This document shows, piece by piece, positions 2,731 to 44,219 of a DNA stretch of 64,000 nt. The position numbers and the translations under genes were made by a program. The notes below the pieces were generated by a model. That model searched no databases and had not been told where the DNA came from. It was given only the letters and a program-made list of their open reading frames with translations. The stretch's first letter is position 1. Every line of letters begins with the position of its first letter. The stretch lies in the NCBI GenBank assembly GCA_963730935.1, contig CAVSTP010000003.1, forward strand, positions 640,001 through 704,000, given 5' to 3'. This stretch comes from an uncultured Nitrospiraceae bacterium. Its GTDB lineage: Bacteria; Nitrospirota; Nitrospiria; Nitrospirales; Nitrospiraceae.

Positions 2731-2733
2731 GCA

Positions 2734-8530: not shown

Positions 8531-8546
8531 CTGTCAAATTTGACAG
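8531..8546. promoter_or_regulatory. Perfect 16-bp palindrome CTGTCAAATTTGACAG, putative transcription factor site
   Basis: Intergenic, about 105 bp upstream of fda; related sites at 27274 and 44204; -10-like TAGAGT at 8570-8575. Confidence 0.65.
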
Positions 8547-8651
8547 TGTTCCCGGCAAAGTTGGCGTTGTAGAGTGCGTTTCCGACTGCGCAGTGTTCGT
8601 ACAGACAATGATGACGACTGACTGGCAAGAATTGCAGGGGAGGCTTCCACC

Positions 8652-9554
8652 ATGAACACTCTCAGCTCTCACGAGCAACAACAGCGGCAGATGAAGACAC
8701 ATCCCGGTTTCATTGCGGCACTGGACCAAAGCGGGGGCAGCACGCCCAAGGCGCTGCATCAATATGGAATCAAGGAAGGAGCATGGTCCAACGACAATGA
8801 AATGTTTACTATCGTACATCAGATGCGCGCGCGCATCATTACCAGTCCCGGTTTTTCCGGCAAGCGGATCATTGCCGCCATCTTGTTCGAAGACACCATG
8901 AATAGGGAGATCGCGGGGAAACCTACTGCGGACTATCTTTGGAATGAGAAGCAAGTGGTCCCTTTCCTCAAAGTGGACAAAGGCCTTTTGCCTGAAGAGA
9001 ACGGGGTTCAGTTGATGAAGCCCATCTCCGGACTTGCCGCACTGCTCGACAAAGCCAAAACGAAAAACATCTTCGGGACCAAGATGCGTTCTGTCATCAA
9101 GGAAGCCAATGGAGCCGGCATCAAGAACATCGTGAATCAGCAGTTCGAGATTGGGGGGCAGATCATCTCCGCTGGCCTCGTACCGATCCTCGAGCCTGAA
9201 GTTGACATTCGCTGTCCTGAGAAGGGCAAAGCCGAAGGGCTGCTCAAGGACGCCATCCTGAAGCAACTCAGCGAACTGCCGGCGAATCAATTGGTCATGC
9301 TCAAGCTCACAATTCCGGATCAAGACGACTTCTACCTTGATTGCATTCGACATCCTAAGGTGTTGAGGGTCGTCGCGCTGTCGGGCGGTTATACGAGGGA
9401 AGAAGCCAACAACCGTCTGCGGCGGAATCATGGACTCATCGCGAGCTTTTCGCGGGCACTGGTAGAAGGGCTGTCGGCCCAGCAATCCGATGCTGAGTTC
9501 AACGCCATGCTGGATAAATTCATTCAGAGCATCTTTGATGCGTCCAATACTTAA
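8652..9554 (+). CDS. fda: Fructose-bisphosphate aldolase class I (bacterial Fda type)
   Basis: [50 protein letters not shown]. Confidence 0.92.
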
Positions 9555-9621
9555 GATAAGCGGTCTGCTCTACTCGGACTGATGATAACTGAGGCGCAGG
9601 CCCTGACACTTCAGCGTTGAC

Positions 9622-10842
9622 ATGCGGATCCTGGTGATTAATAGCGGAAGCTCATCGATCAAATTCCGGCTCGCAGAGGTCGTAGAGGAAAAGGGCACAC
9701 TGGCAACGCGACCGGGCCTGCTCGAAGGGGCCGTCAAAGGGATTGGAGGCGCGCCGAGCGTCGACATGACTGGACAACTGGTGAGCCGTTCAACGACCAA
9801 GATAGAAGCTCGAGACCATACCCAGGCCATGCGTGTGCTCATGAATCAGCTTGGCAATTCGCTGAGCAGCATCCAAGCCGTGGGACACAGGGTGGTGCAC
9901 GGCGGAGACCGCTACGTCGAGTCCACTGTGATTACCGACCAGATTGAAGCTGGAATCGATGCGCTATCCGAATTGGCGCCGCTCCACAACCCTGCCTGTC
10001 TCGCGGGCATTCGGGGGGCGAAAGCGGCCTTGGGATCAACCGTTCCGATGGTGGCTGTCTTCGATACGGCGTTTCACCGAACGATGCCTGAAGTCGCCAG
10101 GCACTATGCGATCTCAACCGAGCTCGCCGATCGCCATCACATCCGCCGATATGGATTTCACGGGATCGCGCATGCGTCGCTCGCTAACGGCTACGGGGTC
10201 TGCACTGGAAACTCGTTGAAGCAGGCGCGCATCATCACGCTTCAGTTGGGCAACGGCTGTTCGGTCGCCGCGATTGCAGAAGGGAAATCGATCGAGACTT
10301 CGATGGGGTTTACTCCGTTGGAAGGCTTGGTTATGGGGACACGCTCGGGAGATATCGATCCTTCCGTCGTCAGTTATCTTTCCGAGCGGGAAAAAGTCGA
10401 ACCGGCCGAAGTGGAACGATGGCTCAACCAGCGATCCGGCCTCCTGGGACTCTCAGGACGATCCAATGACATGCGGGAGCTCTTGCGCGCCGTCGAGCAG
10501 GAAGGGGACCAGCGCGCCGAGTTCGCCGTCGATCTCTTTTGCTACCGGGTGCGTAAATATCTGGGCGCCTACCTGGCCGTATTGGGTGGCGCGGATGCGA
10601 TCGTCTTTGGAGGCGGCATTGGGGAAAACGCGCCGGAGGTTCGGAAACGAATCTGCCGGAACATGGAGTGGTGCGGGATGAGTGTTCATCCAGACCGCAA
10701 TCGGACTGCCGTAGGACTCAGCGCGGGGTCGGCGGGGAAGATCAGTACGGATGATTCGCGGGTGGCGGTGTACGTCGTGGCGGCCGACGAAGAAACATGG
10801 ATTGCAAAAGAAACGGCTCGCTGTGTGCGGGCGATCAATTGA
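9622..10842 (+). CDS. ackA: Acetate kinase
   Basis: ILVINSGSSSIKF, GHRVVHGG, LAPLHNP, FDTAFH, RRYGFHG, TSMGFTPLEGLVMGTRSGDIDP. Confidence 0.95.
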   Translation: MRILVINSGSSSIKFRLAEVVEEKGTLATRPGLLEGAVKGIGGAPSVDMTGQLVSRSTTKIEARDHTQAMRVLMNQLGNSLSSIQAVGHRVVHGGDRYVESTVITDQIEAGIDALSELAPLHNPACLAGIRGAKAALGSTVPMVAVFDTAFHRTMPEVARHYAISTELADRHHIRRYGFHGIAHASLANGYGVCTGNSLKQARIITLQLGNGCSVAAIAEGKSIETSMGFTPLEGLVMGTRSGDIDPSVVSYLSEREKVEPAEVERWLNQRSGLLGLSGRSNDMRELLRAVEQEGDQRAEFAVDLFCYRVRKYLGAYLAVLGGADAIVFGGGIGENAPEVRKRICRNMEWCGMSVHPDRNRTAVGLSAGSAGKISTDDSRVAVYVVAADEETWIAKETARCVRAIN

Positions 10843-10896
10843 TTATTTTGCAGGCGCCATCCATGAATCGGGGTGGCGGCAGGGAGGGAACGCCTC

Positions 10897-13302
10897 ATGG
10901 GAAATGCACTTTCGGATAAAGAGCTGAAGCTGATTGATGCGTATTGGCGGGCGGCGAATTATCTCTCCGTCGGTCAGATCTACTTGTTCGACAACCCGCT
11001 GTTGAAACAACCGCTGAAGAAAGAGCACATCAAACCCCGCCTGCTCGGCCACTGGGGTACGACGCCGGGGCTGAATTTTCTCTATGCGCACTTGAATCGA
11101 GTGATCAAGCAGCGGGACCTGAACATGATGTACATCATCGGTCCAGGGCACGGCGGTCCCGCGATCGTGGCCAACGCTTACATGGAGGGGACCTACTCGG
11201 AAGTGTATCCGAACATGGCTCAGGACGAAGAGGGCATGAAGCGGCTGTTCAAGCAGTTTTCATTTCCGGGCGGCATTCCGAGTCACGTGGCGCCGGAGAC
11301 TCCCGGCTCCATCCATGAGGGCGGTGAATTGGGCTACGCGGTGTCGCATGCCTATGGCGCGGCGTACGACAATCCCGACCTGATCGTCGCCTGCGTCGTC
11401 GGAGACGGGGAGGCCGAAACCGGTCCGCTGGCGACGTCGTGGCACTCGAACAAGTTTCTCAACCCACTCACCGACGGCGTCGTGCTCCCGATTCTGCATT
11501 TGAACGGCTACAAGATCGCCAACCCCTGTGTGCTGGCCCGCATCAGCCATCAGGAGTTGGACCAGCTCTTCCGGGGCTACGGCTACACCCCGTATTTTGT
11601 CGAGGGAAGCGATCCCGAGAAGATGCACCAGATCATGGCGGCGACGCTCGACACGATCATTGAAGACATACACCGCATCAAGACTGAGGCGCGGCGGACG
11701 GGTGCCAAGAAGCGGCCGCTGTGGCCGATGATCATTCTTCGTTCTCCCAAAGGATGGACCTGTCCAAAAGAAATTGACGGGAAACGGTGCGAGGACTACT
11801 GGCGGAGCCATCAAGTGCCGATGGGCGACATGGAAAAGACAGAACACGTCAAGATCCTCGAAAAATGGATGAAGAGCTACAAGCCGGAAGACCTCTTCGA
11901 CAAGACCGGCCGCCTGAAACCTGAGTTGGCGGAGATGCCGCCGAAGGGTGATCGCCGCATGAGTGCTAATCCGCATGCCAACGGCGGGCTGCTGCTCAGG
12001 GATTTGCGGTTGCCCGACTATCAGGACTATGCGGTCCAAGTCGTCAAGCCCGGCGCGACGACGGCAGAATCCACCCGCCACATGGGAAAGTTCTTGCGCG
12101 ACACGATGAAGCTGAATCTGGAAAGCCGTAATTTTCGTCTGTTCAGTCCTGACGAGAACAACTCAAATCGCTGGCAGGACGTGTTGGAAGTCACGAATCG
12201 CGCTTGGATGGCGGAGAGTTTTCCATATGATGATCACCTGGCGCCGGATGGCCGCGTGATGGAAATGCTGAGCGAGCACCAGTGCCAGGGATGGCTGGAA
12301 GGGTATCTCCTGACGGGTCGGCACGGGTTCTTTTCCTGCTATGAGGCGTTCATCCACATCATCGATTCCATGTTCAATCAGCACGCCAAATGGCTGAAGG
12401 TCTGTAACGAGATCCCCTGGCGGAGATCCATCGCCTCGCTCAACTATTTGCTGAGCTCTCATGTGTGGCGGCAGGACCACAACGGATTCAGCCATCAGGA
12501 CCCGGGCTTCATCGATCACGTCGTCAATAAGAAAGCCGACGTCGTGAGGGTCTATCTGCCACCCGATGCGAACACGCTCTTGTCCGTGACCGATCACTGC
12601 CTGCGCAGCAGGAACTACGTCAACGTCATCGTGGCGGGTAAGCAGCCGGCACCGCAATGGCTGACGATGGACCAGGCGATCAAGCATTGTGCGGCCGGTA
12701 TCGGCATTTGGGAATGGGCGAGCAACGACAAAGGCTCAGATCCCGACGTCGTCATGGCGTGTTGCGGGGACGTGCCCACGCTCGAAACACTCGCCGCCGT
12801 GGACATTATCCGGCAGTACGTTCCGGCTTTGAAGATCCGCGTCGTGAACGTGGTAAATCTCATGAAATTACAGCCGCCCAGCGAGCATCCGCACGGTCTT
12901 TCGGACTTCGATTTCGATGCACTCTTTACGAAAGACAAGCCCGTGGTGTTCGCCTTCCACGGCTACCCGTGGTTGATTCATCGTCTCACCTATCGAAGGA
13001 CCAATCACAAGAACCTCCACGTGCGTGGGTACAAAGAGGAAGGCACGACCAGCACGCCGTTCGACATGGTCGTCATGAACGATCTCGACCGGTTCCACCT
13101 CATTGGCGATGTCGTGGACCGCTTGCCGCAACTTGGGTCTCGGGCTGCCTATGCCAAACAGGCGATCCAGGAGAAGCTGCTCGAGCACAAGCAATACATT
13201 GCCAAATACGGCGAGGACATGCCCGAGATCACCAATTGGCAATGGGGGCAGGGAAGTGGCAAGACGAAGCGCACAAGCTCAACGGAAGGCGACAACGTCT
13301 AG
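10897..13302 (+). CDS. xfp: Xylulose-5-P/fructose-6-P phosphoketolase
   Basis: [23 protein letters not shown], ThDP motif [34 protein letters not shown]. Confidence 0.96.
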
Positions 13303-13333
13303 TTGCATCTTCTCCTTGTCGGAGGAGGGTTAA

Positions 13334-15808
13334 ATGACACAGGAACAGCTCCAACACTTGCTGCAGCAATACGGCGTGGGGCCCATCCAATTTTCCGGCA
13401 ATCACGACGCCCTGTATGAACGGCATTTGACCTTCGATAACGTCGTTGATCTCAAGAGCGCGACCATGCGGGAACGGTTTGAAGCGGCGGCGCATGCCAT
13501 CCGCGACATCGTGTCGCAACGCTGGCTGCTGACGGAGAAAACGTATGCCGAGAAGAATCCGAAGCGGGTCTATTACCTGTCGATGGAATATCTCCTGGGG
13601 AGGTCGTTTGCCAACAACATGACGAATGCGCTACTCCGCCCATTGGCAGCCGAACGTCAAAAACACCTAGGTCTAGATCCATTTGCATTGATCGAAAGTG
13701 AGCCGGATGCCGGACTGGGCAACGGCGGCCTTGGCAGATTGGCCGCCTGTTTCATCGATTCGATGGCGACGATGGAGATTCCAGGCATGGGGTACGGCCT
13801 GCGCTATGAGTACGGGATTTTCAAGCAAACGATCCAGGACGGGTGGCAACGGGAGCAGCCGGATAACTGGCTTCGGAGACCGGATCCTTGGGAGGTCGTG
13901 CGGCCGGATGATGCGGTCGAGGTGAAACTGAATTGTACGTTCGAACTTCGGGAAGGCATGCTGCGTCCCATCGTCGGTCGGCCTTCGGTTCTCCTCGGCA
14001 TCCCGTTCGATCGTCCGGTCATCGGTTACGGGGGCAAAACCATCAATACGCTGCGGCTCTGGGCGGCGAGCACTCCGGATTTTTTTGATTTTCAGCTGTT
14101 CAGTCGAGGGCATTTCGTGGGGGCGTTCGCAGAGATGCTTGCTGCGGAATCACTCACGCGCGTGCTCTACCCCGATGACTCGACAATCAGGGGGCAAGGT
14201 TTGCGATTTTTGCAAGAGTATTTTTTGGTGGCCTGTTCGCTGGGCGATCTGGTTCGGCGCTTTCGTCGTGGCAATCAAGATTGGAATGCTCTTCCGGAAA
14301 AAGCCGCCATCCAGTTGAATGACACCCATCCCACCATGGCCGTTCCCGAACTCATGCGTATCCTGCTCGATGAGGCCCATCTGGGATGGGATCAGGCCTG
14401 GGATCTCACACAACGGACGCTTGCCTATACGAACCATACCCTGTTGCCGGAGGCGTTGGAGACATGGCCGCTCGAATGGTTCGACGATATGCTGCCGCGG
14501 CATCTTGAAATTATTCTCGAGATCAACCGCCGCCTGCTGGAGGTGGTTCGAAACCGTTTTCCCGGAGACGACGGACGGCTAGCACGCGTCAGCCTTGTCG
14601 AGGAAGGGCAGCGGCGCAAGATCCGTATGGCCAACCTGGCGATTGTCGGGTCGCACAGCACCAACGGTGTGGCCGCCATCCATTCCAAGCTGCTCCGGAC
14701 GATGACCGTCAAGGACCTGGCCGACCTCTATCCCGAGCGGTTCAACAACAAGACCAACGGCGTTACCCCGCGGCGATGGCTGCTCCTGGCGAATCCGGCC
14801 CTCTCATCTGTGATTACCGAGGCCATCGGCGACGGATGGATTACCGATCTGAGCAAGCTTGCGCAGCTCAAGAAATTGGCCGACGATCCTCAATATCAAG
14901 AGGCGTTCCGCAAAGCAAAACGTGAAGCGAAGACGGCCTTTGCCCAGTGGCTTAAGACGACGTCCGGTCAATCCGTCGATCCGGACAGCATGTTCGATTG
15001 CCAAGTCAAACGCATTCACGAATACAAGCGGCAGCTGTTGAACGCGCTGCGCATCGTCGTGCTGTACAACCGCCTCCGTGAGAACCCCAACATGAGGATG
15101 GCCCCTCGAACGTTCTTTTTTGCCGGCAAAGCCGCGCCGGCCTATCACCTGGCCAAGGTCATCATCAAGTTCGTGAGCAATCTCGCCGGCACCATCGACG
15201 GGGATCCGAACGCTCGGGGAAAGATCAAAGTGGTATTCCTGCCCGAGTATTGCGTTTCGCTCGCCGAGCGGTTGATTCCCGCCACCGATGTCTCCAATCA
15301 GATTTCGACGGCCGGGTATGAGGCCAGCGGCACGAGCAATATGAAGTTCATGATGAATGGCGCGTTGACCTTGGGGACGCGAGACGGCGCTACGATCGAA
15401 ATGGCGGAGGAAGCGGGGGAGGATAACTTCTTTCTCTTCGGCCTCACGGCGGACCAAGTGGCGGGGAGCCGAGGTTGGTACGACCCATGGTGGCACTATG
15501 AACATGAGCCGCAAACGAGAGCGGCGCTCGATCTGATCTTCTCCAACTACTTCAGCCGGAATGAACCGGGAGCCTTTGCGCCGCTGGAACATGCGTTGCT
15601 GACGGGCGGGGATCATTACATGCATTTGGCCGACTTGACGTCCTACGTGAACGCCGACCGCGACGTCACCGATCTGTACGCCGACGCGAACGGTTGGGCG
15701 CGCAAGGCGATCTTGAACATTGCGGCCTCAGGGAAGTTCTCCAGCGATCGGACGATCGCCGAATATGCCGCGGGGATTTGGAATGTAAAGCCCTGTCCCG
15801 TTTCCTGA
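13334..15808 (+). CDS. glgP: Glycogen/starch phosphorylase
   Basis: GLGNGGLGRLAACF, IQLNDTHP, VKRIHEYKRQ, PLP site EASGTSNMKFMMNG. Confidence 0.96.
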   Translation: MTQEQLQHLLQQYGVGPIQFSGNHDALYERHLTFDNVVDLKSATMRERFEAAAHAIRDIVSQRWLLTEKTYAEKNPKRVYYLSMEYLLGRSFANNMTNALLRPLAAERQKHLGLDPFALIESEPDAGLGNGGLGRLAACFIDSMATMEIPGMGYGLRYEYGIFKQTIQDGWQREQPDNWLRRPDPWEVVRPDDAVEVKLNCTFELREGMLRPIVGRPSVLLGIPFDRPVIGYGGKTINTLRLWAASTPDFFDFQLFSRGHFVGAFAEMLAAESLTRVLYPDDSTIRGQGLRFLQEYFLVACSLGDLVRRFRRGNQDWNALPEKAAIQLNDTHPTMAVPELMRILLDEAHLGWDQAWDLTQRTLAYTNHTLLPEALETWPLEWFDDMLPRHLEIILEINRRLLEVVRNRFPGDDGRLARVSLVEEGQRRKIRMANLAIVGSHSTNGVAAIHSKLLRTMTVKDLADLYPERFNNKTNGVTPRRWLLLANPALSSVITEAIGDGWITDLSKLAQLKKLADDPQYQEAFRKAKREAKTAFAQWLKTTSGQSVDPDSMFDCQVKRIHEYKRQLLNALRIVVLYNRLRENPNMRMAPRTFFFAGKAAPAYHLAKVIIKFVSNLAGTIDGDPNARGKIKVVFLPEYCVSLAERLIPATDVSNQISTAGYEASGTSNMKFMMNGALTLGTRDGATIEMAEEAGEDNFFLFGLTADQVAGSRGWYDPWWHYEHEPQTRAALDLIFSNYFSRNEPGAFAPLEHALLTGGDHYMHLADLTSYVNADRDVTDLYADANGWARKAILNIAASGKFSSDRTIAEYAAGIWNVKPCPVS

Positions 15809-15837
15809 CAAGCGCGTGCACCGAACAGGTAGGTGTC

Positions 15838-16449
15838 ATGAACGAACATCTTCCCATCGTCTATCTCGCGAGGCACGGTGAAACGGCATGGACGATTTCG
15901 GGGCAGCACACAGGGCTGACCGATCTGCCGTTGACCGAACGCGGTGAGCGCACAGCCCGCAGACTAGGCGAACGGCTCAAAGGGTTGACGTTTGACTTAG
16001 TATTGACCAGTCCCCTGCAGCGGGCGGCCAGGACCTGCGAGCTTGCCGGCTTCAAGTCGGCGGCTGAAGTCGATAAAGACCTGGTGGAATGGGACTATGG
16101 TCAATATGAGGGACGCCGGACGGCCGACATTCTCGCGGAACGCCCGGGCTGGGAGTTGTTCCGCGACGGCTGTCCCGGAGGAGAGTCACCTCAACAAGTC
16201 AGCGTACGGGCCGACCGGGTGGTGAAGCGAGTGCGTGAGGTGGACGGAGACGTTCTCATCTTCACGAGCGGACATGTCATGCGAGTGCTCGCGGTGCGCT
16301 GGCTGGGGCTTGAGCCCTCGGTCAACTGCAAGTTCTTCATGCTGAGCACGGCGAGCCTGAGCGCCTTGGGGTATGAACACAATCGGTCCCGGCCGGTGAT
16401 ACGACTCTGGAACGAAACTCGTCACGTCGAGATGGGGCAGAACGATTGA
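15838..16449 (+). CDS. Histidine phosphatase (phosphoglycerate mutase family)
   Basis: RHGETAW, SPLQRA, EWDYGQYEG motifs; ATG at 15838. Confidence 0.88.
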   Translation: MNEHLPIVYLARHGETAWTISGQHTGLTDLPLTERGERTARRLGERLKGLTFDLVLTSPLQRAARTCELAGFKSAAEVDKDLVEWDYGQYEGRRTADILAERPGWELFRDGCPGGESPQQVSVRADRVVKRVREVDGDVLIFTSGHVMRVLAVRWLGLEPSVNCKFFMLSTASLSALGYEHNRSRPVIRLWNETRHVEMGQND

Positions 16450-16477
16450 ACGATCATAGCGAAAAGGGACGGCAATC

Positions 16478-18154
16478 ATGACCACGACCGCACGCAGCGC
16501 TCGCCCGAAGCTCAAGCGAATGACATTTCTCCCACGGCGGAAAGCCTGGAAGGCGCTGCAAGCTCATTATAAGGCTATGCAGGAGGTGCATCTGCGCACG
16601 TTGTTTGCGGAGGATGCTCAGCGAGGCACACGCTTGACCGCTGAAGCCGCAGGACTGTTTCTGGATTATTCCAAGAACCGGGTGACAGACGAGACCATCC
16701 GGCTGCTCGTACAGCTGGCCGAGGAGTCCGGGCTGCGCGACCGCATCGAGGCCATGTTCAGAGGCGACAAAATCAATGTGACGGAACATCGAGCGGTCCT
16801 GCATGTCGCCTTACGCGCACCGCGTGAAGCGTCAATTATGGTCGATGGTGAGAATGTGGTGCCCAAAGTCCATGCGGTGCTGGATCAAATGACCGTCTTT
16901 GCGAACCGTGTGCGGAGCGGCGATTGGAAGGGCCATACGGGCAAGCGGATCAAGAACGTCGTGAATATCGGCATCGGCGGATCGGACCTGGGACCGGTCA
17001 TGGCTTATGAGGCGCTCAAGTACTACAGCGAGCGGTCCATGACGTTCCGGTTCGTTTCAAATGTCGACGGGACCGATTTCACAGAAGCCGTCCGTGATCT
17101 CCAGCCCGATGAGACCTTGTTCATCGTGTCCTCAAAAACGTTCACGACGCTCGAAACCATGACCAACGCCAACAGCGCGCGCGAGTGGTCGCTCGCGGGC
17201 CTGGGCGGCGAACCGGCCGCAGTGGCGAAGCATTTTGTTGCGGTCTCCACGAATGCGGCGGAAGTCGGAAAGTTCGGCATCGACACCGCGAACATGTTTC
17301 CATTCTGGGATTGGGTGGGCGGCCGCTACTCGATGTTCTCGGCGATCGGACTCTCGACGATGCTGGCGATCGGTCCCGAGCAGTTCCGCGCCATGCTCAA
17401 TGGCGCTCATCAGATCGACGAGCATTTCCGCACCGCGTCCTTGGCAGAGAATCTCCCGGTACTCATGGGATTGCTCACGGTCTGGTACGTCAATTTCTTG
17501 GGGGCTGAGACCGTCGGGGTATTGCCCTATGAGCAGTATTTGAAACGATTCCCCGCCTATCTGCAGCAATTAACGATGGAGAGCAACGGCAAACACGTCA
17601 CCATCGACGGCAAGGGGGTGTCCTACGACACCGGCCCCGTGTTTTGGGGAGAGCCTGGGACCAACGGGCAACATTCGTTTTATCAGCTCATCCATCAGGG
17701 CACGAGGCTGATTCCTTGCGACTTCATCGCCTTTCACCGGTCGCTCAATCCGCTCGGCCGACACCACGAGTTGTTGGTGGCCAATGTCTTCGCGCAAACC
17801 GAGGCGCTGGCATTCGGCAAGACGGCCGAGGAGGTAAGAGCGGAGGGGACGCCGGAGTGGCTCGTGCCGCACCGGGTGTTCGAGGGAAACCGTCCCTCCA
17901 ATACGCTGTTCGCCGAGAGGTTGACGCCCGAGATGCTCGGCAAACTGGTCGCGCTGTACGAACACTCCGTGTTCACGCAAGGCATCATTTGGACCATCGA
18001 CTCATTCGACCAGTGGGGGGTCGAGCTGGGCAAGGTGTTGGCTCAACGCATCATTCCGGAGCTCGAAAGTCAGGAAGAGCCTGCGCTCAAACACGATAGT
18101 TCAACGAATCATCTGATTGGACGCCACCGTGCAAGGGCCCGCTCCAAGACGTAG
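16478..18154 (+). CDS. pgi: Glucose-6-phosphate isomerase
   Basis: [49 protein letters not shown]. Confidence 0.96.
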
Positions 18155-18170
18155 CTGAGTCTCGTCAAGC

Positions 18171-20294
18171 ATGAATGACAGACCACGCACTCTGCGCAGC
18201 GATTCTCCCGCTCGTTCAGAACGATCAGCCCTGTGGTCTCAAGGCGCGAGTGCCCCTCTCGGCGCGACCGTCACGGAAGGCGGTGTCAATTTCAGCATCT
18301 CCTCACGCGACGCCACCCACCTCGAACTGCTCTTCTTCGATCAGGCGGATGACCCGAAGCCATCGCAGATCTTCGAACTGGATCCGCGCGGGCACCGCAC
18401 GTATCACTACTGGCATGTCTTCGTGCCGGGCGTTTGCCCAGGACAACTCTACGGCTTCCGCGCTCACGGTCCCTTCGATCCCGCGCGGGGAATGCGTTTT
18501 GATCCTACTAAAGTGCTGCTCGATCCCTATGGTCGCGGTGTCGTCGTTCCGGAACAATACAGCCGTATCGCTGCCGGTCAGGATGGCGACAATGCTGCGA
18601 CAGCGATGAAGAGTGTGGTGGTGGATCCGTCCGCATATGATTGGGAGAATGAGCTGCCGCTCAGGCATCCTGACGCTCGGACCATCATCTACGAGATGCA
18701 CGTGCGCGGCTTTACGCGGCACCCAAGGTCGGGAGTCGCCGAACACGAGCGCGGCACCTATGCCGGCCTGATCGAAAAGATTCCCTATCTGCAGGAGTTG
18801 AGCATCACGGCCGTCGAGCTGCTGCCGATATTCCAGTTCGACGCTCAGGACTCCCCGCCGGGCAAAGTCAATTATTGGGGTTACGCACCGGTGTCCTTCT
18901 TTGCGCCCCATCAGGCCTATAGCTCTCGTCGAGAGCCTCTCGGGGCGGTCAACGAATTTCGCGACATGGTCAAAGCGCTCCATCGAGCCGGCATCGAGGT
19001 CATTCTCGATGTCGTCTTCAATCACACGGCCGAAGGAGACGAATGCGGGCCAACCCTCAGTTTCCGCGGCCTGGACAACAATGCGTACTACATCCTCGAG
19101 GAGGACCGATCGCATTACGCCAATTACACGGGCACCGGCAACACGCTGAATGCGAACCATCCCGTGGTCCGCCGCATGATCGTGGACAGTCTGCGTTATT
19201 GGGTGCAGGAGATGCACGTGGATGGATTCCGGTTCGATCTCGCGTCGATCCTGACGCGTGATGAGAACGGTCAGGTGATGCCAAGTCCACCGGTCTTGTG
19301 GGATATCGAATCAGACCCGTCGCTCGCCGGCACGAAACTGATTGCGGAAGCCTGGGATGCCGCCGGCCTCTACCAGGTCGGCAGTTTCATCGGAGATTGC
19401 TGGAAGGAATGGAACGGGCGCTTCCGGGACGACGTCCGCAGTTTCTTCCGCGGCGAAGAGGGATCGTTGGGCCGGTTTGCCGATCGCTTGGTCGGCAGCC
19501 CGGAAATTTACGCGCACAAGCAGCGCGAGCCGGAGCAAAGCGTAAACTTCGTGACCTGTCACGACGGCTTCACGATGAACGACCTGGTCTCCTACAACGG
19601 AAAGCACAACGAGGCGAACGGTGAAGGCAACCGCGACGGCGCCGACGACAACCGGAGCTGGAATTGCGGCGTTGAAGGGCCGACCGATGATGCGGCCATC
19701 GAAGAGCTCCGAAACCGCCAGGTAAAGAATTTCCTCACTGTCACGCTGCTCTCGATCGGCGTCCCGATGATTCTGATGGGCGATGAGGTGCGAAGGACGC
19801 AGCATGGCAACAACAATGCCTACTGCCACGATAACGAGCTCAACTGGTTCGATTGGACCCTGGTGGCCAAACATGCCGATGTCCATCGGTTTGTGACACT
19901 GCTCAACCAACGACGGATTTTGCGGCCTGTCGAGCACGAACGCCAACGGATGACTCTCGCTCAGCTCATCCAGCAGGCCAATAAATCGTGGCATGGAGTG
20001 AAAGTTGGGCAGCCTGACTGGAGTCCGACTTCTCACAGCGTGGCGCTGAACGCGGAGATCAAACACGAAGGATTTGTAGGGTATTTTATCTTCAACGCTT
20101 ACTGGGAACATCTGGAATTCGAGCTGCCGATGCCCCCTGGCAGCCCATGGCGCCGGTGGATTGATACCGCGCTCGACTCGCCGATGGATATTGTTCCGTG
20201 GCGGACCCTGGTTCCCGTTACCGGTCTTGCCTATCAGGTCCAACCGCGGTCGGTGGTCGTATTGGTTGCCGACCTCACGGGCACTTCAAGATGA
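18171..20294 (+). CDS. glgX: Glycogen debranching enzyme (isoamylase)
   Basis: NYWGY, DVVFNHTAEG, DGFRFDLA, IAEAWD, NFVTCHDGFT, GNNNAYC. Confidence 0.94.
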   Translation: MNDRPRTLRSDSPARSERSALWSQGASAPLGATVTEGGVNFSISSRDATHLELLFFDQADDPKPSQIFELDPRGHRTYHYWHVFVPGVCPGQLYGFRAHGPFDPARGMRFDPTKVLLDPYGRGVVVPEQYSRIAAGQDGDNAATAMKSVVVDPSAYDWENELPLRHPDARTIIYEMHVRGFTRHPRSGVAEHERGTYAGLIEKIPYLQELSITAVELLPIFQFDAQDSPPGKVNYWGYAPVSFFAPHQAYSSRREPLGAVNEFRDMVKALHRAGIEVILDVVFNHTAEGDECGPTLSFRGLDNNAYYILEEDRSHYANYTGTGNTLNANHPVVRRMIVDSLRYWVQEMHVDGFRFDLASILTRDENGQVMPSPPVLWDIESDPSLAGTKLIAEAWDAAGLYQVGSFIGDCWKEWNGRFRDDVRSFFRGEEGSLGRFADRLVGSPEIYAHKQREPEQSVNFVTCHDGFTMNDLVSYNGKHNEANGEGNRDGADDNRSWNCGVEGPTDDAAIEELRNRQVKNFLTVTLLSIGVPMILMGDEVRRTQHGNNNAYCHDNELNWFDWTLVAKHADVHRFVTLLNQRRILRPVEHERQRMTLAQLIQQANKSWHGVKVGQPDWSPTSHSVALNAEIKHEGFVGYFIFNAYWEHLEFELPMPPGSPWRRWIDTALDSPMDIVPWRTLVPVTGLAYQVQPRSVVVLVADLTGTSR

Positions 20295-20324
20295 ATATTC
20301 GTAGTGTTTTGAGAGGAGTGAGCT

Positions 20325-21140: not shown

Positions 21141-21150
21141 GGAGGCGCAC

Positions 21151-23958: not shown

Positions 23959-23984
23959 AAGAGCGATCACGCCGACGAGGGTGG

Positions 23985-28878: not shown

Positions 28879-29054
28879 CAACATTTGCCATCGTTTGTTC
28901 CGATCCGGCACTACATGTTCGGTGCCCAATACCCAAGATGTGGGGCTGTGTAATGAAAAACATCATGTGGTGGGGTTGGACAATAGGAGGATGAGCTAGC
29001 GGCTGAACGACTGGAACGAAATAATTCTGCAGCCAGTACAAGGGAGGAGAGAAC

Positions 29055-31482: not shown

Positions 31483-31533
31483 AAGGCTGGTGATTGCCTC
31501 GCTGCGTCAAGAGCCGGAGTTGGTACCTGCGTG

Positions 31534-32513: not shown

Positions 32514-32574
32514 TACGTAGGTGATTGGATGATGACCTGGGCCATCACGTTGCGGATCGAGCTCAAGGAGGATT

Positions 32575-33361
32575 GTGCCACAGATCTGCGACCTGCGCGG
32601 GGCTGCTGTGTCCTGTGTCTGCATGCTGTCGGGTTGCCCCGGGGCGGAATATCTCTGGGAAGTCAGAACCGAGTCCACGACAAGGCCCCCTTCATTCAAT
32701 CCCGCCGTCTTCGAGCAACAACCTGTGGCGGTGCTGGAAGCGCTTACCTGCACCGGGTCTCCATGGTAATGAGGTCGGTCTCACGCTCTCCCTCAGTCGT
32801 AGTCTGAAACAGAATCGAACCGAAGTGGAAACTGGTGTACCCCCAAGAGACAGCGACCCGAATCAATCAGGAGGGATTGGCGGCCGAGTACACGCGCATG
32901 AGGACGGATTACGAGCGAAGTGACATCCTGGATCGTGAGCCACTGCGGAAAATCGGGGCCGCGCTCGGGGCGCGCTACGTCTTCCAACCCCGGTTGGCGT
33001 CTTTCACTCAGATGCTCTACGAGCGTTGGGAATTTCCAGGACTGAATGTGAAGGTCTTGCGAACTCGCGTCGAGCATCCTACGCATGTCATTACAGTTGT
33101 GGGACACAGAAACTGGCGAGTTGATATGGGCTTCAGCAGCGGAGGCCGCCTTCCAGGAGGAAGCGTTATTTGATGGCCCAGTATACCTTCGGGAGGCGGG
33201 ACTCAATTACCTGGGGCAGCATTATCTCAGATTTAACGCATAACAGGACGGCCTTCCGGTACACGCCGGCGGACGCCCTACTTGATGCGCTGAGTGGACC
33301 AGATGGTGTCGACGAGGACTCAGCTAGCAACAACCCTGCAGAGTCCTCGGGAGGCAAATAG
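32575..33361 (+). pseudogene. Lipoprotein, fragmented paralog of 45789..46565
   Basis: Fragments LSGC, PGLHGNEVGL, GLAAEYTRMR, RYVFQPRLASFTQMLYERW align with the intact copy. Confidence 0.72.
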
Positions 33362-33496
33362 AATGTTCTCTGACGGTGCGCTCGCATGACGAAGGTTCAC
33401 TTCACCCCTGTCCCACTACATGGAAAAGATTAAACGCAGGATTGCGGACGAACAGCAACTTCAAATCAAACACCATCCACGAAAGAGCAAACGACT

Positions 33497-33586
33497 ATGC
33501 ACCCCATGAATCGTCGCGATGCGACGCCGCAAGAAGAGGCTCTAGGCGGCAAATGGGCCGCGCCGAAGGTAAAGGGAGCTGAGTGA
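33497..33586 (+). pseudogene. 29-aa remnant: Tat-like start fused to a DUF1214-like C-terminus
   Basis: Translates as MHPMNRRDATPQEEALGGKWAAPKVKGAE*. Confidence 0.45.
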
Positions 33587-33624
33587 AATACCCGGATCAA
33601 ACGACGACCCATAGGAGACCGATC

Positions 33625-35115
33625 ATGAACATTAAATACCCAAAACACTTTATCACCGGAGCTGCAGGGCTAGGGCTCGTCGTCACGCTCGTAGCCGCCA
33701 ACGCGCTGGCGCAGACGCCCGAGACGCGTCGAAACCCGCATCGGCGAGCTGAAGTTCGAGCGGGGCTACCCCACCGAAGAGACCACGCGAAAAGTCTTCG
33801 ACGAGATGGACTACCAGCGGCCGTGCAAGCCTACTTGTGGGCCTACCCGGCCGTTTCGTTCGAGTCGATCCGGATTGGAGTCAAGCGGGACCTCGGCCTC
33901 GACTACAACGAATTCACCATCGCCGACAAACTCGCCGACGCCAAGTCCGTCTGGCTCACGGCGAACGACAGCACGGTCTATGCCTTGACGCTCGTCGATC
34001 TTGGGAAATCTGGACCGATGGTGGTTGATGTCCCGCCCGGCGCCATCGTGGGCCTGATCGACGACTACTGGCAGCGCTCGCTCACCGACCTGGGCCTGCC
34101 CGGTCCCGATGGCGACAAAGGCGGAAAGTTTCTCCTCCTGCCCCCCGGCTACAAGGGCGAGGTTCCCGAAGGAAGGCTACCACGTCCTGCAGGGGACGAT
34201 GAACGACTACAACGTCATGGTCCGCGGCATCGCGGTGAAGGGCGACTTCGCCGGTGCGGTGCAGGTCGTCAACAAGATGAATGTCTACCCGTGGAGTGAA
34301 CGCGACAATCCCAAACCGGCCAAGTTCGTTTCCTTCTCGGGGAAGGTGATGGATACCCTTCCGCCAGGCGGCATCGAATACTGGGCGCGGCTTTCTGCGT
34401 TCATCAACAACAACCCCGTTCAGGAGCGCGACCGTTTTTTCATGGCGATGCTCAAGCCGTTGGGCATCGAGAAAGGCAAGCCGTTCAAGCCCGACGCGCG
34501 GCAGCGAGCATCCTCGAAGACGCGGCCCGGATCGGCGACGCCATGGGCCGCGTGATGCTCTTCGAGGGAGAGCAGCGCATCAACAGGGCCAACGCCTTTC
34601 GCGGCACTAAGTGGAACTGGGTGGTCCTCAACAGTCCCGACCAGGAAACCGAAAACTACAGCCAGCTCGACGAACGGCTGCACTACACCTACGGTGCCAT
34701 CTACACGTCGCCCTACATCGGAGTCGAAGAAGCCCGGCCCCGGGTCGGAGTACGTCCAGGCCTTCAAGGACAAGGACGGCAATCGCCTCGACGGCGGCAA
34801 GTCCTACCGCCTGCACGTGCCGGCGAACGTACCGGCCGCGACCTTCTGGTCGCTGACGATCTACGACACCGCGACTCGCTCCATGCTTCAGAACCCGAGC
34901 GGTGACGCCGCCCACTCGTCCTACGACAAACTCAAGACCAACGCGGACGGCTCGATTGACCTTTACTTCGGGCCCAAGGCCCCCGCCGGCCAGGAGAGCA
35001 ACTGGACCGAGACGGTTCCCGGCAAAGGCTTCTATCCGATGTTCCGCTTCTACACCCCAAAGAGGGCGTGTTTGACGGGACATGGAAGCTGCCGGACGTC
35101 GAGTTGATGAAATAA
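33625..35115 (+). pseudogene. DUF1254/DUF1214 periplasmic protein, about 6 frameshifts
   Basis: ETRIGELKFERGYP, LTANDSTVY, GPDGDKGGKFLLLPPGY, LDGGKSYRLHVPANVPAATFWSLTIYD, NADGSIDLYFGP. Confidence 0.8.
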
Positions 35116-35266
35116 CGAAGACGAAACGACAGCCATGAAGTGCAAGTAGGCACCGAACCCACTATTAAAAAAGGAGACCCGGAAAATCGCACAACATTCA
35201 GTTCAGTCGGCAGTCGCTGGTGCTGCCAGTTACGCCCATGTCGAGCGGATCGGCTTTGGTATCTGC

Positions 35267-35887
35267 ATGATCGTAGCGCCCATCTTTATGCTCGGAGCGG
35301 CATTCCTTCACCCAGCGCATGGGATCGAGGGTACGCAGTACTACCACGCCGCGCATGACTATTCCCCGCGGTTCTACGTGGCCCACACGCTGTTCTTCCT
35401 CGCAGCGGTCCTCTTCGTGCCCGCTATCGTCGGGCTGGCGCGCTTGGTGCACGCCCGCCATCCCAAGGCGGCCTTTTGGGGCTGCACGCTTTCGCTCATG
35501 GGCTTCATCGGCTTTGGGGCGTTGGACGGCGCGGACTACTTTGCCTGGGTGGCTGGGAATCCGGACAATGCGCTGGACCCAGCAATGATGCAAAAATTCA
35601 TCGAGACCGCGCTGACCAGTATGTCCATCCTGATCCCGATCATGCTGGTCTTCAGCCTGCTCCCGATCGGTCTTGGTGTGCTCGCTGTCGGAACGGCCCG
35701 AGGAGGCATCCTTCCCACCTGGCTCGCTGTGTTGATGCCGGTAGGCATGTTCGGCATAGCATCTTTTCTTGAATATCCGATCCCGCTGGTCCTGTCAGGC
35801 CTCGCCCTGCTCGCGAGCTTCGGGACGGTCGGTGTGAGGCTGCTGAAGGATTCGAATGGGATGCAATCTCAGGCGGCCCCGGTCTGA
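35267..35887 (+). CDS. Integral membrane protein (about 6 TM); frame is open upstream to about 35180, start codon possibly damaged
   Basis: Hydrophobic helices; AAGGAG RBS near 35171 without an in-frame ATG. Confidence 0.6.
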   Translation: MIVAPIFMLGAAFLHPAHGIEGTQYYHAAHDYSPRFYVAHTLFFLAAVLFVPAIVGLARLVHARHPKAAFWGCTLSLMGFIGFGALDGADYFAWVAGNPDNALDPAMMQKFIETALTSMSILIPIMLVFSLLPIGLGVLAVGTARGGILPTWLAVLMPVGMFGIASFLEYPIPLVLSGLALLASFGTVGVRLLKDSNGMQSQAAPV

Positions 35888-36009
35888 AGAGCCCTGCAGC
35901 GGATTTCCGAAAGGGCCTCAACGCTTGCCGGCGTGAAGAGCGTTACAGCTTTTATGCGAAGGCCGGTCCGCCAAGGGAGCTCTCGAGCTGGTCAATCAAA
36001 GGTGAGATT

Positions 36010-37012
36010 ATGAAGATCAAACACGCTCATTCCATCATCGCCGCCGCTCTCTTTTGCGGGCTGGCTGTCACGACGAACGTCGCGCAGTCTGCCGACCCGC
36101 TGCCATCCTGGAACGATGGCAAGTCGAAGCAGTCCATCCTGACTTTCATATCAAAGGTCACCGAGAAGGGCTCGCCGGATTTCGTCCCGCCCGCCGAACG
36201 CATCGCCACGTTCGACAACGACGGCACGCTGTGGACCGAGCAACCCTTGTATTTCCAGCTTCAATTCGCGCATCGACCGAATCAAGGAGCTGGCTCCGCA
36301 GCACCCCGAGTGGAAGGACACAGAGCCTTTCAAATCGGTCCTCGCGGGGGATCTCCAAGCCGCGTTTGCGGGCGGTGCAAAATCGCTGGTCGAGATTGCG
36401 GGTGCCGGTAATGCAAACATAACGCCCGAAGAGTTCGATCGAATCGTAAAAACATGGGCCGCGACGGCAACGCACCCGAAGACGGGGCGGCTATATACCG
36501 AGATGGTGTATCAGCCGATGCTCGAAGTGCTGGCCCACCTTCGAGCCAATGGTTTCAAGACGTACATCACCTCAGGTGGCGGTGTCGATTTCATGCGCGC
36601 GTTTGCGGAACGCGTGTATGGCATTCCGCCCGAACAGGTGATCGGCAGTGTGGGCGAGGTCAACTTTGAGATGCGCGACGGCAAGCCCGTGCTGATCAGG
36701 CAAGCGGCCCTGGCTTTCTTTGACGACAATGTATTCAAACCCGTCGCGATACACCGGAACATAGGCCGGCGGCCGATCGCCGCGTTCGGCAACTCTGACG
36801 GCGACCTGCAGATGCTGCAGTGGACGTGTGCTGGTTCTGGCACGCGTTTTTGCCTTTTTGTTCGCCATACGGACGGCGATCGCGAGTGGAACTACGACGT
36901 CACGCCGCTTGGCCGTCTTGAAAAGGGCCTGGAAGAAGCCAAGGCGAAAGGCTGGACCGTCGTCGATATGAAGAACGACTGGAAGGTAATTTATCCGTTC
37001 GAGAAAAAGTAG
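36010..37012 (+). pseudogene. Secreted HAD-family hydrolase (acid phosphatase-like), +1 frameshift near 36271
   Basis: DPLPSWNDG, FDNDGTLW (DxD), TYITSGGG, AAFGNSDGDLQML, GWTVVDMKNDW. Confidence 0.82.
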
Positions 37013-37049
37013 ATCACGTGAGTAGATCGCTGCATTTAGCTCAAAACGC

Positions 37050-37180
37050 GGCGAAGGCTTTCTACCCAAAGATGCGGTTCTGCAGCCCCAAAGAGAGCGT
37101 GTTCGACGGGAGATGGGAGCTGCCGGACGTCGAGTTGATGAAGGAATGAAAGACGAAACGACGACAACCATGAAGTACAA
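37050..37180 (+). repeat. Degenerate copy of 35021-35145 (3' end of the DUF1214 gene plus downstream spacer)
   Basis: Shared GCTGCCGGACGTCGAGTTGATGAA and AAGACGAAACGAC; translates as GFYPKMRFCSPKESVFDGRWELPDVELMKE*. Confidence 0.8.
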
Positions 37181-37246
37181 GGAGCCATAATAAAAACCAC
37201 ACAGCCCCATCCTGATGACCACTGGCGCAACAAGGAGAAACCTTGT

Positions 37247-37783
37247 ATGAAAACAACAGAGCCACACACACTCGCCCAGCTTGGGTGGAAATACATCGTT
37301 TGGGGTCTGGGCCTGTTCCTCACAGGGTTTCTGACTGGCTTCATCCCGATCCTCCATTACGTGCCCGGCGCACAATCGGGAGATGTCGGCCCGGTTTTTC
37401 TCAAGAACGTGACACTGTGGTGGGGTTGCCCGGCGGTGCTGGCGGAGCTCACGCTGAAAACCGGCAGTTTGGGCATGATGGCGATCGGATTCGCTTATCT
37501 CGCAATGGGCCAGCAAGGTCCGACAGCACTGACAAGTCGCGAGCGAATCGCCCCGACGCTGTGTGGGTACGGGCTCATCGCTGAACTCGTGACCGCTGGC
37601 GTCTTCTTTGTCGTGTGCAACCTCATCTGGCCGAACTTCTATTTCGAGCCCGTTCAGGCGGGAAAGAATGTATGGCTCGTGGTGCAGGGCATCAGCATTG
37701 CCGTCTATGTTGTGGGTGTTATGTTTGCTTTTTCTAGCATCCGCAATCGGTCGACAGCTCTTGTGCCGGCTATGGCCCGGTGA
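37247..37783 (+). CDS. Hypothetical membrane protein (4 TM)
   Basis: RBS AAGGAGA; four hydrophobic segments; intact ORF. Confidence 0.65.
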   Translation: MKTTEPHTLAQLGWKYIVWGLGLFLTGFLTGFIPILHYVPGAQSGDVGPVFLKNVTLWWGCPAVLAELTLKTGSLGMMAIGFAYLAMGQQGPTALTSRERIAPTLCGYGLIAELVTAGVFFVVCNLIWPNFYFEPVQAGKNVWLVVQGISIAVYVVGVMFAFSSIRNRSTALVPAMAR

Positions 37784-37897
37784 GGTTTAGAGATGATCGA
37801 CCGTACACTTAACTGTTCACGAGTCTTGCAACCACGTCTGAAACGACTGTGGTCTCGACGTTGACTAGTCCTATCGACGATCCATAGGAGACCGATC

Positions 37898-39525
37898 ATG
37901 AAGATTAAACACAAAAACAGCTTTATCCCCGCCACCGCGCTGTCGCTCATCGTCACGGCAATGACTGCCGGCGCACAAGGGGCGGACATCCCAAGTCCGT
38001 CACCACGCCGGACACCGTCGAGACGCGCCTCGGCACGCTCAATTTCAAGGACGGCGTGCCCGACGCCGCCACGACACAAAAACTATATGACGAGTTGGAT
38101 TACATCCATGCGGTGGATGCCTTTATCAACGGATACCCGTTGGTGAACCAACTGGCCCTCCGCAAAGGATTCATCGCGGCAGGCATCAACGACAACGAAT
38201 TCATGGTGACGCCGAACTTGATGGATTCAAAGTCGCTGTTTCTGACCGCCAATGCCGACACCTACTATTTCTGGGGTTATCTCGATCTGACCAAGGGACC
38301 CCTGGTGGTGGAAACGCCTCCCGGCGCACTGGGTATTTTCGATGACATGACCTGGAAATGGATTTGTGATTTTGGATTGCCCGGCCCCGACCGGGGCGAA
38401 GGTGGAAAATATCTGCTGGTTCCGCCGGGCTACGACGGCGCGCTGCCCGAAGGCGGCTATTTCGTCGGCCACTCGAACACCTGGCAGGTCTCCTGTTTGG
38501 GCCGCTTGTTTCTGCAGAACAACGATCCCAAGCCGGTCGATGACGATCGTCAAGAAAACGCTCAAGATCTATCCCTATGTGCCCGGCGGCATGGGATCGA
38601 GCATCGGCAATTATTTGAACGGACAAGGCGAGCTGGGACCACTCAGCACACCGGTGTCGCCGAGGTTCGTGGATGGCACATCGAAAGTGATGAACACCAT
38701 CCCGCCGGCTGACGATACCTATTTTGAATTTCTCAACGAAGTGATTCAAACGCAACCCGCGGGAGCGGTGGACCCTGAAATCGCCGGACAATGTGCGGCC
38801 ATCGGGATTGTCAAAGGCAAACCTTTCAATCCGGATGCCCGGATGAAGAAAATTCTCACCGACGCGGTCGCCGTCGCCAACGCCGCCAGCCGTGCCGTAA
38901 CCTTCAATGCGCGCGCACGAAGAAGGCTTCAATTATTACGGCGCCGACATCCAACTGGGTGAACTCCCTGTTCACCGGCGGTTATGAATTCATGACGCCG
39001 CCACCCGAAGTCACCGAAGGAAGGCGTCAAGCCCTATCCGAGCGATGGCGCCCGCAAGCTCAATGCCCGCATCTGGTTTTTCTATCTGGCCACCGGCATC
39101 ACGCCGGCGATGTGCATGCGACTCGACCAACGTCGGTTCGCAATATCTGGCGGTCTATCTCGATAGCAAGGACGTGCCCTTTGATGGCGGCAAGACCTAT
39201 CAAGGTCACGCTGCCGAAGGACATTCCCGCTGCCAGGTTCTGGTCGTTTACCGTCTATGACAATCAAACGCGCTCGATGCTGGACACACCGCAGCGCTAT
39301 CCGCGTGCAGGCAGCCAGAGCTATCCTTCGCCCGCAGCAAAAGCCAATGCCGATGGATCGACGACGGTATACTTTGGTCCCACGCAGCCCAATGGTGTCG
39401 ATCGCGGCAACTGGATTCAAACCACACCCGGCAAAGGCTGGTGTGCGTTGCTGCGGTTGTACAGCCCGCTGAAGCCATTCTTCGACAAGAGTTGGCGGGC
39501 AGGAGAAATTGAATTTGTCAAGTGA
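37898..39525 (+). pseudogene. DUF1254/DUF1214 periplasmic protein, about 6 frameshifts
   Basis: FLTANADTYY, GPDRGEGGKYLLVPPGY, IPAARFWSFTVYDNQTRSML, NADGSTTVYFGP, LRLYSPL..FFDKSW. Confidence 0.8.
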
Positions 39526-42678: not shown

Positions 42679-42684
42679 CAGAAA

Positions 42685-44149
42685 ATGAGGACGACAATGC
42701 AAGGACGGTTCAGACCTCCATGTGCCTACCTACTGCTTTTCGTAATGTCGGTCATGGTCGGATGCGAATATGTCCGTCCGACCCTCAACGCCCCCTTGGA
42801 AAAATGGGTGCCTGACGGCGGATATCGTTTCGTCAATGTCGCTCGGCCAGAGGCGGACAACACGGATAGTTTGCTCTTTGTCGCCGCCTTTTCGGGCGGC
42901 GGAACCCGCGCCTCAACCCTCGCATTTGGTGCTCTTCGAGAGCTCGCGCACCAGCAGATCGTTTGGGAAGGCAAACAGAAGCGGCTGCTCGATGAACTCG
43001 ACCTGATCCATGCCTTATCCGGAGGCACGTTTACCGGCGGCTACTATGCGCTGTATCGCGACCAAATCTTCCATGACTTTGAATACCGCTTTCTTCGGAA
43101 GGACTGGGAGACCGAATTGAGACACCGGGTATTTCGGTCCCCCAGTAATTGGGTTCGGCTGTGGTCGCCCTATTTCGGCCGGGCGCATCTGATGGCCGAA
43201 CTGCTGAATGAAGCGTTGTTCGATCATAAAACCTATGGGGACCTGGCTGCCCTCCAACAACGACCGATGCTCATCATTCACGCCTCGGACATGGCCACTT
43301 TGGCTCGGTTTGAATTTACGCAATTTCAGTTCGATTTCCTCTGTTCGGATCTTAGCCAATTGCCGATCGCTGACGCCTCTGCGGCCTCTGCTGCCCTTCC
43401 TCTTGTGCTGAGTCCGATCTCCTTAAAAAATTACGCAGGCAAGTGCGAGCTTTGAAGCGCCGGCCTGGTTGGCTCAAGCCAAGAGGGGAGGCCGAATCGG
43501 TGCACAGCGCGCCAACGAAATGCTCTCCTTCATGGACGCGGAAAAACGTCCTTATATTCATCTGCTCGATGGAGGCCTCTCGGACAATCTCGCGCTCCGA
43601 GGAATTATCGAAGGCAGCGGTCTGCAAGGATCATTTGAAAAGTTACTCGTTATGGCCCGTGTGAAGAATGTGAAGAAATTGGTGATTCTCGCGGTCAATG
43701 CCGAAACCTCTCCTGACGTCCTCGAATTCCGTAGCGACCATGTCCCCGTCATCTCCAAAGCGATGAGCTCCATGATCGATATTCCGATCAACCGGTATTC
43801 TTTTGATACGACCACGCTCATTAGTATGGGAGTGGAGAAGTGGAAAGCGGAGCTAAAAGCAAAACCAAGAGGTCCGGACAGTCCCTGGGCGAAGGATGCC
43901 GAGATTTATTTCATCAACGCCAGCTTGAGTGAAATAGAGGATCCCGACGAGCGTGTGTCGCTGATGAAAATCCCGACCACGCTGTATCTGAACGATGAGC
44001 AGATCGACCGGCTGGTGATGGCGGCATCCAAGCTGATCCGCGGCAACAAGGAGTTTCAGAGGCTGATGAAGGATATCAAGGCTCCCTCCGATGGTTCAGT
44101 GACAGCGCTTGAGAATGAAAAGCTTGATAAGGGGCAGACAGCTCACTAA
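42685..44149 (+). pseudogene. Patatin-like phospholipase lipoprotein, one frameshift near 43449
   Basis: Lipobox MVGC; FSGGGTRA, ALSGG, LLDGGLSDNL; frames join as ..GKC-x-FEAPAWLAQA. Confidence 0.8.
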
Positions 44150-44203
44150 TAGAGATGCAATCAATGGTTCAGGGGCCGGTCACCCGCCGCCGCTTTCCAT
44201 GCC

Positions 44204-44219
44204 CTGTTACTTTTGACAG
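44204..44219. promoter_or_regulatory. Palindromic site CTGTTACTTTTGACAG
   Basis: 86 bp upstream of ATG 44306; matches the 8531 and 27274 motif. Confidence 0.6.

Follow-up and report, generated by a model that had tools for sequence, protein, structure and literature searches.

DosR/DevR of Mycobacterium is a master regulator of the NarL family, with tens of palindromic sites, autoregulation and a universal stress protein (USP) among its targets. At the scale of a single promoter, Escherichia coli NarL activates yeaR from a 16-bp site of the 7-2-7 type at -43.5, beside a weak -35 hexamer, according to the accessible part of PMC10853779. Here we describe a palindrome, CTGTCA-N4-TGACAG (hereafter the box), that recurs in a 64,000-nucleotide stretch of DNA (the window) from an uncultured Nitrospiraceae bacterium (GenBank GCA_963730935.1, contig CAVSTP010000003.1, positions 640,001 to 704,000). 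We put the probability at roughly 0.87 that the box is the operator, as predicted from sequence, of a NarL/FixJ-family response regulator encoded just ahead of the window at G000:C3:637811-638467, where G000 denotes the source genome (4.05 Mb, 99.89% complete, closest relatives titled Nitrospira) and the window itself is G000:C3:640001-704000.

Three copies lie in the window, all on the forward strand: a perfect one, CTGTCAAATTTGACAG, at 8531-8546 (27.2 bits), 105 nt 5' of fda, and two with one mismatch each, CTGTTACTTCTGACAG at 27274-27289 (24.3 bits), 128 nt from an ATG with a nearer one also present only 53 nt away, and CTGTTACTTTTGACAG at 44204-44219 (23.1 bits), 86 nt from the ATG of an exported-looking hypothetical gene that is followed by a USP gene. 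All three are intergenic and followed by T, as the first-pass annotation of this DNA had reported at these positions, and shuffling the window 100 times never produced a match. The degenerate fourth copy that it had proposed near 39678 is no site, its matrix score falling below 0 bits; a genuine fourth site lies 234 bp before the start of the window (G000:C3:639767-639782) and heads the window's first gene block.

Across G000, 16 exact copies were observed against an expectation of 0.12 derived from half-site counts, while 12 other spacer lengths yielded 0 or 1 exact match each. Allowing one mismatch gave 33 sites, 32 of them intergenic by our own gene calls. We also built a matrix from 229 sites in genomes other than G000. 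At a threshold of at least 18 bits it found 33 sites, every one intergenic; with the spacer lengthened by 1-3 nt it found none (shortening the spacer makes a control score some positions twice, and such controls were left out of this count). The same dyad ranked third in an unbiased scan of G000 intergenic dyads.

The candidate regulator belongs to a cluster on the reverse strand that spans 0.4-2.7 kb before the window and recurs in relatives. It comprises a PAS-HisKA_3-HATPase kinase (G000:C3:638492-639583), the adjoining response regulator gene, whose product carries Pfam Response_reg and GerE domains, and a lone receiver (G000:C3:637295-637636) that is frameshifted near its end in this assembly. 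The box at 639767-639782 lies ahead of both the kinase and the first window block, with TAAAGT 23 nt away towards the latter, and a weaker box (G000:C3:637704-637719) lies ahead of the lone receiver. D10, D54, T82 and K104 are invariant in 12 orthologues of the regulator, the helix signature of which is T[VI]AFHKY. Its nearest solved relatives are VraR, NarL, DesR and DevR (DevR PDB match, E 3e-28), and it falls below every named NCBIfam cut-off among the 25 families listed (best 147 bits against 300, for MctR; 94 against 250 for NarL); the named NarL-family equivalogs NarL, NarP, UvrY/GacA, MctR, RcsB, FixJ and UhpA were set aside on this curated measure. A single LuxR-family helix-turn-helix regulator encoded outside the window had been foreseen in the first-pass annotation, and a NarL-family regulator beside the window supports this. 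In G000 as a whole, 23 proteins fit a HisKA_3-like His-box pattern, one or more of them possibly falsely, compared with about 20 LuxR-type domains.

Within the genus, box and regulator keep company. Exact boxes are present in 25 of 32 genus relatives, at 2-16 copies each, and in none of the other seven; two of 28 more distant genomes have one exact box each. The signature occurs in 21 of the 25 box-positive genus genomes, in none of the seven box-negative ones and in none of the 28 other relatives, while paralogous regulators are present in box-negative genomes. Of 20 orthologous loci, 19 have a site 22-112 nt past the regulator, and 12 have one about 1.3 kb before it, ahead of the kinase; the loci of weaker regulator matches have no site within one mismatch (0 of 10). 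Footprinting in other Nitrospira found boxes conserved before homologues of fda, of the patatin-like gene behind 27274 and of the gene behind 44204 in several relatives.

The association extends well beyond Nitrospira. Using an alignment of the 12 orthologues as query, we took the best 78 of 582 loci and set aside nine from Nitrospiraceae and one duplicate, leaving 68 non-Nitrospira loci (1.198 Mb). These are mostly from Acidobacteriota, with further record titles naming Planctomycetota, Gemmatimonadota, Chloroflexota, Alpha-, Gamma- and delta-proteobacteria, Binatia and Eisenbacteria, although some bins may be misassigned. They contain 75 exact and 109 one-mismatch boxes, compared with 0-1 and 0-6 at ten other spacers, and 53 of the 68 loci have a box within one mismatch. 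A matrix built from Nitrospira alone finds 268 sites in 60 of the 68 (1-3 in controls), including sites within 300 bp before the regulator in 21 loci and after it in 25. A similar kinase core is present in 38. The 89 regulators form one branch apart from the Nitrospira paralogues in a quick tree (SH-aLRT 99). Among 160 evenly drawn Acidobacteriota, all five signature-positive genomes have exact boxes, four of them two or more, and among 120 genomes from the phylum of the planctomycete locus the sole signature-positive genome has a box beside the gene. Because the box travels with one two-component regulator across soil groups, it is very probably that regulator's predicted docking site. Whole-genome exact counts in five carriers are 18, 1, 1, 1 and 0, and therefore regulon size varies widely. 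A plasmid search gave a single 45% match.

The position of the box relative to putative promoters is equally constrained. Downstream of box 8531 a -10-like hexamer, TAGAGT (8570-8575, forward strand), follows at 23 nt as the first-pass annotation had noted, leaving space for a non-consensus -35 hexamer and 17 nt. When gaps to TAnnnT were counted on both flanks of every site, a gap of 23 was found in 14 of 66 flanks in G000, in 18 of 118 in other Nitrospira and in 77 of 362 in other phyla (in the last set a further 26 had gap 24, and each remaining gap had 0-6). A peak in three independent sets thus puts the 16-bp palindrome immediately 5' of the six bases of the -35 position, which usually depart from consensus, with a 17-nt spacer beyond them. 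Assuming a standard -10 at -12 to -7, the predicted centre of the box is about -43.5, which agrees with the activator site near -42/-43 first suggested for 8531. Of the three window boxes only 8531 has a clean -10: box 44204 has TATGCA at gap 23, and box 27274 has no -10 there; the expected position is instead occupied by an inverted repeat, ATTGTGGG-N8-CCCACAAT (27306-27329), present as a single copy in the genome. We rejected the right half of the box (TTGACA) as the -35 element itself because its 24-nt distance to the -10 is too long for sigma70 spacing.

We hypothesize that the co-transcribed PAS kinase phosphorylates the regulator, that a regulator dimer would then bind the 16-bp 7-2-7-like site directly upstream of the weak -35 hexamer, and that the bound regulator would recruit sigma70 polymerase much as NarL does at yeaR. 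It may activate its own genes, closing a positive loop, as well as the lone receiver, which probably drains or relays phosphate, and about 33 G000 promoters would respond together. The parallel with NarL at yeaR comprises a NarL/FixJ receiver with a GerE domain, a HisKA_3 partner and one 16-bp palindrome upstream of a weak -35; it does not extend to the DNA sequence or recognition helix, nor to the kinase, a PAS protein without a detected membrane sensor domain rather than NarX, and the targets of the box, unlike those of NarL, are not nitrate respiration. The regulon is real and conserved, and its cognate regulator is strongly indicated; the mechanism itself is already known, indeed textbook. 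We found no published description of the box or regulon in a search that subscription papers, supplements and RegPrecise-type databases lay outside, and the accessible main text of PMC8510549 contains no such motif.

The 94 proteins beside G000 boxes were scanned for families, and most of the predicted targets belong to three groups: proteins of the envelope or destined for export, enzymes of glycogen and pentose-phosphate metabolism, and stress proteins. Among the families are Ysc84, DUF4136, BON, beta-barrel porins, RND sets, sulfatases, a catalase-like protein, hemerythrin, DUF3597, LEA_2, USP, transaldolase-gnd-zwf, a glycogen-phosphoketolase run, and urease with a urea transporter. For the other phyla the scan covered 73 of the 154 candidate first genes; these largely encode exported or envelope proteins, the first gene often being the regulator itself or a lone receiver. 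One G000 box (C3:537924) separates a urease-gamma gene from a divergently oriented urea-transporter gene and has TAnnnT at gap 23 in both directions, and a urease gene in G025 is also preceded by a box, which suggests that the regulon reaches urea use.

Tens of palindromes, a NarL-family regulator, putative autoregulation and USP among the targets are all features shared with DosR/DevR, from which this system differs in its box, in a kinase without haem-ligand evidence and in its mostly envelope or exported targets. There is also a resemblance to the EcfG general stress regulon of Sphingomonas melonis, as far as the consulted portion of PMC6599016 describes it, in GlgX, catalase, MscS, DUF3597, Zn alcohol dehydrogenase and single-domain receivers, although the overlap is one of family names only and, of the G000 genes concerned, some occupy distal positions or simply have a box nearby. 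EcfG, an alternative sigma factor, reads its own -35 and -10, whereas the promoters here look like those of sigma70, with a response regulator apparently acting on them. It is tempting to see in the regulator clade a master switch, so far undescribed, that governs general stress or survival in Nitrospira and Acidobacteriota and has passed to other soil phyla, the task of the alternative sigma factor of other bacteria being done by a response regulator with an autoregulatory loop and a lone receiver, and through which some Nitrospira couple envelope remodelling to glycogen breakdown via phosphoketolase; we offer this joint reading tentatively, with the odds somewhat against it as a whole. More speculatively still, acetyl phosphate from phosphoketolase could act back on the regulator. 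Little is known of how Nitrospira and Acidobacteriota control their genes, and the present analysis yields a sharp motif with a candidate regulator and, in a single genome, about 33 predicted target promoters; an acidobacterium has up to 18 exact sites. Many hypothetical exported proteins are thereby grouped into one programme, the breadth of which across soil phyla, together with its size, raises the regulon above a local operator.

As to the signal, target content favours general stress or energy limitation, at a little short of even odds, over envelope or surface state and low oxygen, which we rate equally at about one chance in four each, with only a slight remainder for anything else. A stricter variant of our assignment, compatible with it, makes the same regulator specifically an oxygen-sensing dormancy switch like DosR or FixK, in keeping with the hypoxia or dormancy response first proposed for these genes; we consider this unlikely, if not negligibly so. 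USP, a hemerythrin-domain gene and the bc-nirK block lie near boxes, and low oxygen stays conceivable as a cue because in Bradyrhizobium diazoefficiens the genes for phosphoketolase and acetate kinase depend on FixK2 and are induced by microoxia (PMC9104804 and PMC6515984, in their accessible parts). The sensor lends the idea no support: a conserved haem, flavin or FeS ligand was sought in the shared PAS domain, and no His or Cys is invariant among 18 aligned domains, a comparison that the extra GAF or PAS domains of some orthologues lie outside. Among solved structures the closest PAS domains are sensory boxes that are themselves uncharacterised, and the sensor region varies from lineage to lineage. 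In G001, G025 and G031 no site lies close to xfp, and homologues of USP, xfp and nirK occur in only 0, 2 and 1 of the 68 non-Nitrospira loci. Five soil or rhizosphere RNA runs contained 7-11% of words, and the four examined were contigs of other strains, without start, strand or level.

A further alternative, improbable in our estimate, is that a different transcription factor reads the box and that the response regulator is merely a conserved target inherited with the same island. The regulator sits in the same island as many targets, among its own putative ones; in some acidobacterial loci boxes also precede Crp-like genes and other genes of the LuxR family; and G000 has 21 GerE-type matches, mostly unprofiled, our cross-genome profiling of alternatives having covered just one other transcription-factor family and LuxI. 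Four box-positive genus genomes (59, 74, 76 and 96% complete) lack the signature. Our own assignment faces further points: genome G065 has the regulator and no exact box, and 15 of the 68 non-Nitrospira loci have no site within one mismatch (8 of 68 at 14 bits). An exact box occurs in 11 of 155 signature-negative Acidobacteriota, three of which have two or more, TAnnnT at gap 23 is absent from 19 of the 33 G000 sites, including two of the three in the window, and kin genomes are not independent. Against a different reader, the box accompanies the regulator clade into several phyla with different kinases and neighbours, and paralogous regulators occur in box-negative genomes. The Crp family that we profiled, present in three copies, was rejected as box reader on its distribution across genomes: three closed genomes with boxes lack it, and two genomes without boxes have it. 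This profile covered one family, and G000 has two other Crp-like genes.

In the Acidobacteriota set, a reversed-pattern control matched in 6 of 161. The eight sites in the three multi-box signature-negative genomes are divided between open reading frame (ORF) interiors (six) and the centres of long inverted repeats (two), and an alignment search in five signature-negative Acidobacteriota returned one ordinary paralogue only. Near-perfect inverted repeats with arms of ~34 bp and a box-like core were seen at L174:3763 and L175:3284 of G169, a genome without the regulator. The Crp-family genes of G000 are near-identical, three plus a fragment (C3:71358, C3:851570, C4:1427694 and C4:1794732), and the family is patchy in the genus, with up to eight matches per genome.

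Very improbable is the quorum-sensing role that the first-pass annotation also entertained, in which the box is a lux box read by a LuxR protein responsive to acyl-homoserine lactone (AHL). The afe-box of Acidithiobacillus ferrooxidans, GCTGTCAA-NN-TTGACAGC, has an identical core at a similar promoter position, in the -35 region (PMC3759942, accessible part), and its reader shares the LuxR-family DNA-binding fold; our regulator, in contrast to AHL-type LuxR, has a phospho-receiver instead of an autoinducer-binding domain. The lux box of Nitrospira NspR1 is ACCTGGCG-N4-CGCCAGGT (accessible part of PMC8553950), and the consulted portion of PMC12342949 describes Nitrospirales quorum-sensing genes and no such regulon. 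Neither LuxI nor an over-cutoff autoinducer-binding domain was found in G000, although the same LuxI search succeeded in 8 of 22 relatives (6 of 16 box-positive, 2 of 6 box-negative), and all six luxI loci that were opened carry the NspR1 box, whereas a copy of the present box, even allowing one mismatch, occurs in none. Since the core shared with the afe-box is here probably read by a regulator with a phospho-receiver, lux-box scans in Nitrospira and Acidobacteriota can mislabel this regulon as quorum sensing. Several AHL-type LuxR proteins presumably have an RTVxFH recognition helix, resembling that of this regulator. Least credible of all is a LexA (SOS) operator: the box contains CTGT-N8-ACAG, the LexA consensus, and accounts for 28 of 60 such cores in G000, but no LexA DNA-binding domain was found there by a search that detected 10 of 14 controls, no site within three mismatches occurs in the 600 bp before recA, no repair gene is among the targets examined, and a box upstream of the -35 suits an activator. 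BirA and ModE sites, which contain the half-site with 14-nt spacers (PMC545781, accessible part), were rejected as unrelated.

Returning to the window and the predicted targets of the NarL-family regulator, the first gene block (1-6994, forward) encodes an alpha-amylase family protein, DUF2780, LEA_2, Ysc84, a hypothetical protein and, by our own reading, a glucosidase-like protein. Box 8531 precedes a predicted target operon (8652-23958, forward; gaps of 10-67 nt) with genes for class I aldolase, acetate kinase, phosphoketolase, glycogen phosphorylase, histidine phosphatase, PGI, isoamylase and PPK2, followed by a large protein without a family match that we again read as glucosidase-like. 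The fda box is conserved in G030, G013 and G006, and in G022 a box precedes xfp. A lone gene inside the island at 6998-7930 (reverse), divergent from fda, reads to us like ATP synthase gamma, and a homologue of it adjoins xfp in G025.

The envelope block ascribed to box 27274 fared less well, in that the box is real and the patatin-like gene behind it is broken in this assembly by frameshifts and a stop. This block is partly decayed, and a chalcone-isomerase-like gene diverges on the other side of the box; in four relatives, patatin homologues have a site 157-158 nt upstream. Other broken genes in the window (27343-39525 and 42685-44149) include a lipoprotein-like gene at ~32600-33300, pieces of DUF1254 and a HAD-like gene at ~36000-37000, and a second patatin is also frameshifted; this damage may be either decay or assembly error.

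Behind box 44204 lies a possible target operon (44306-59370, forward; gaps of -4 to 87 nt) that starts with a hypothetical gene, USP, two further hypotheticals, an M48 peptidase and Rieske, and continues with a Cu nitrite reductase-cytochrome c, a cytochrome c, a cytochrome b-c, an RND efflux set and a hypothetical gene. A perfect site is found 82-142 nt before the homologue in G013, G005, G001, G025 and G032. The box before this block, proposed from the outset to govern nitrite reduction, is real; nirK itself lies 4.9 kb and six genes behind it in a tightly spaced run, and control of nirK and the other distal members would follow only if the run is one operon. The Rieske gene is in the same arrangement in G013 and in a different one in G009. 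A one-mismatch FNR/DNR-type site, TTGATCAAAATCAC, at 48512-48525, one of three such matches in the window, lies 33 nt before the Rieske start and could give the bc-nirK unit its own promoter. From ~59400 to 64000 the window looks like an rRNA region, and the ORFs listed there are probably spurious.

Two other dyads were noted in the scan of G000 intergenic sequence. The top-ranked one, GATTGC-N3-GCAATC, is present in 20 copies against 0.08 expected. The other, ACTAGG-N6-CCTAGT, has 10 exact copies and 27 within one mismatch, none of them in the window (examples are C4:250575, C3:872540 and C4:142394); one precedes a paralogous NarL-type regulator, and this dyad is possibly the box of such paralogues.

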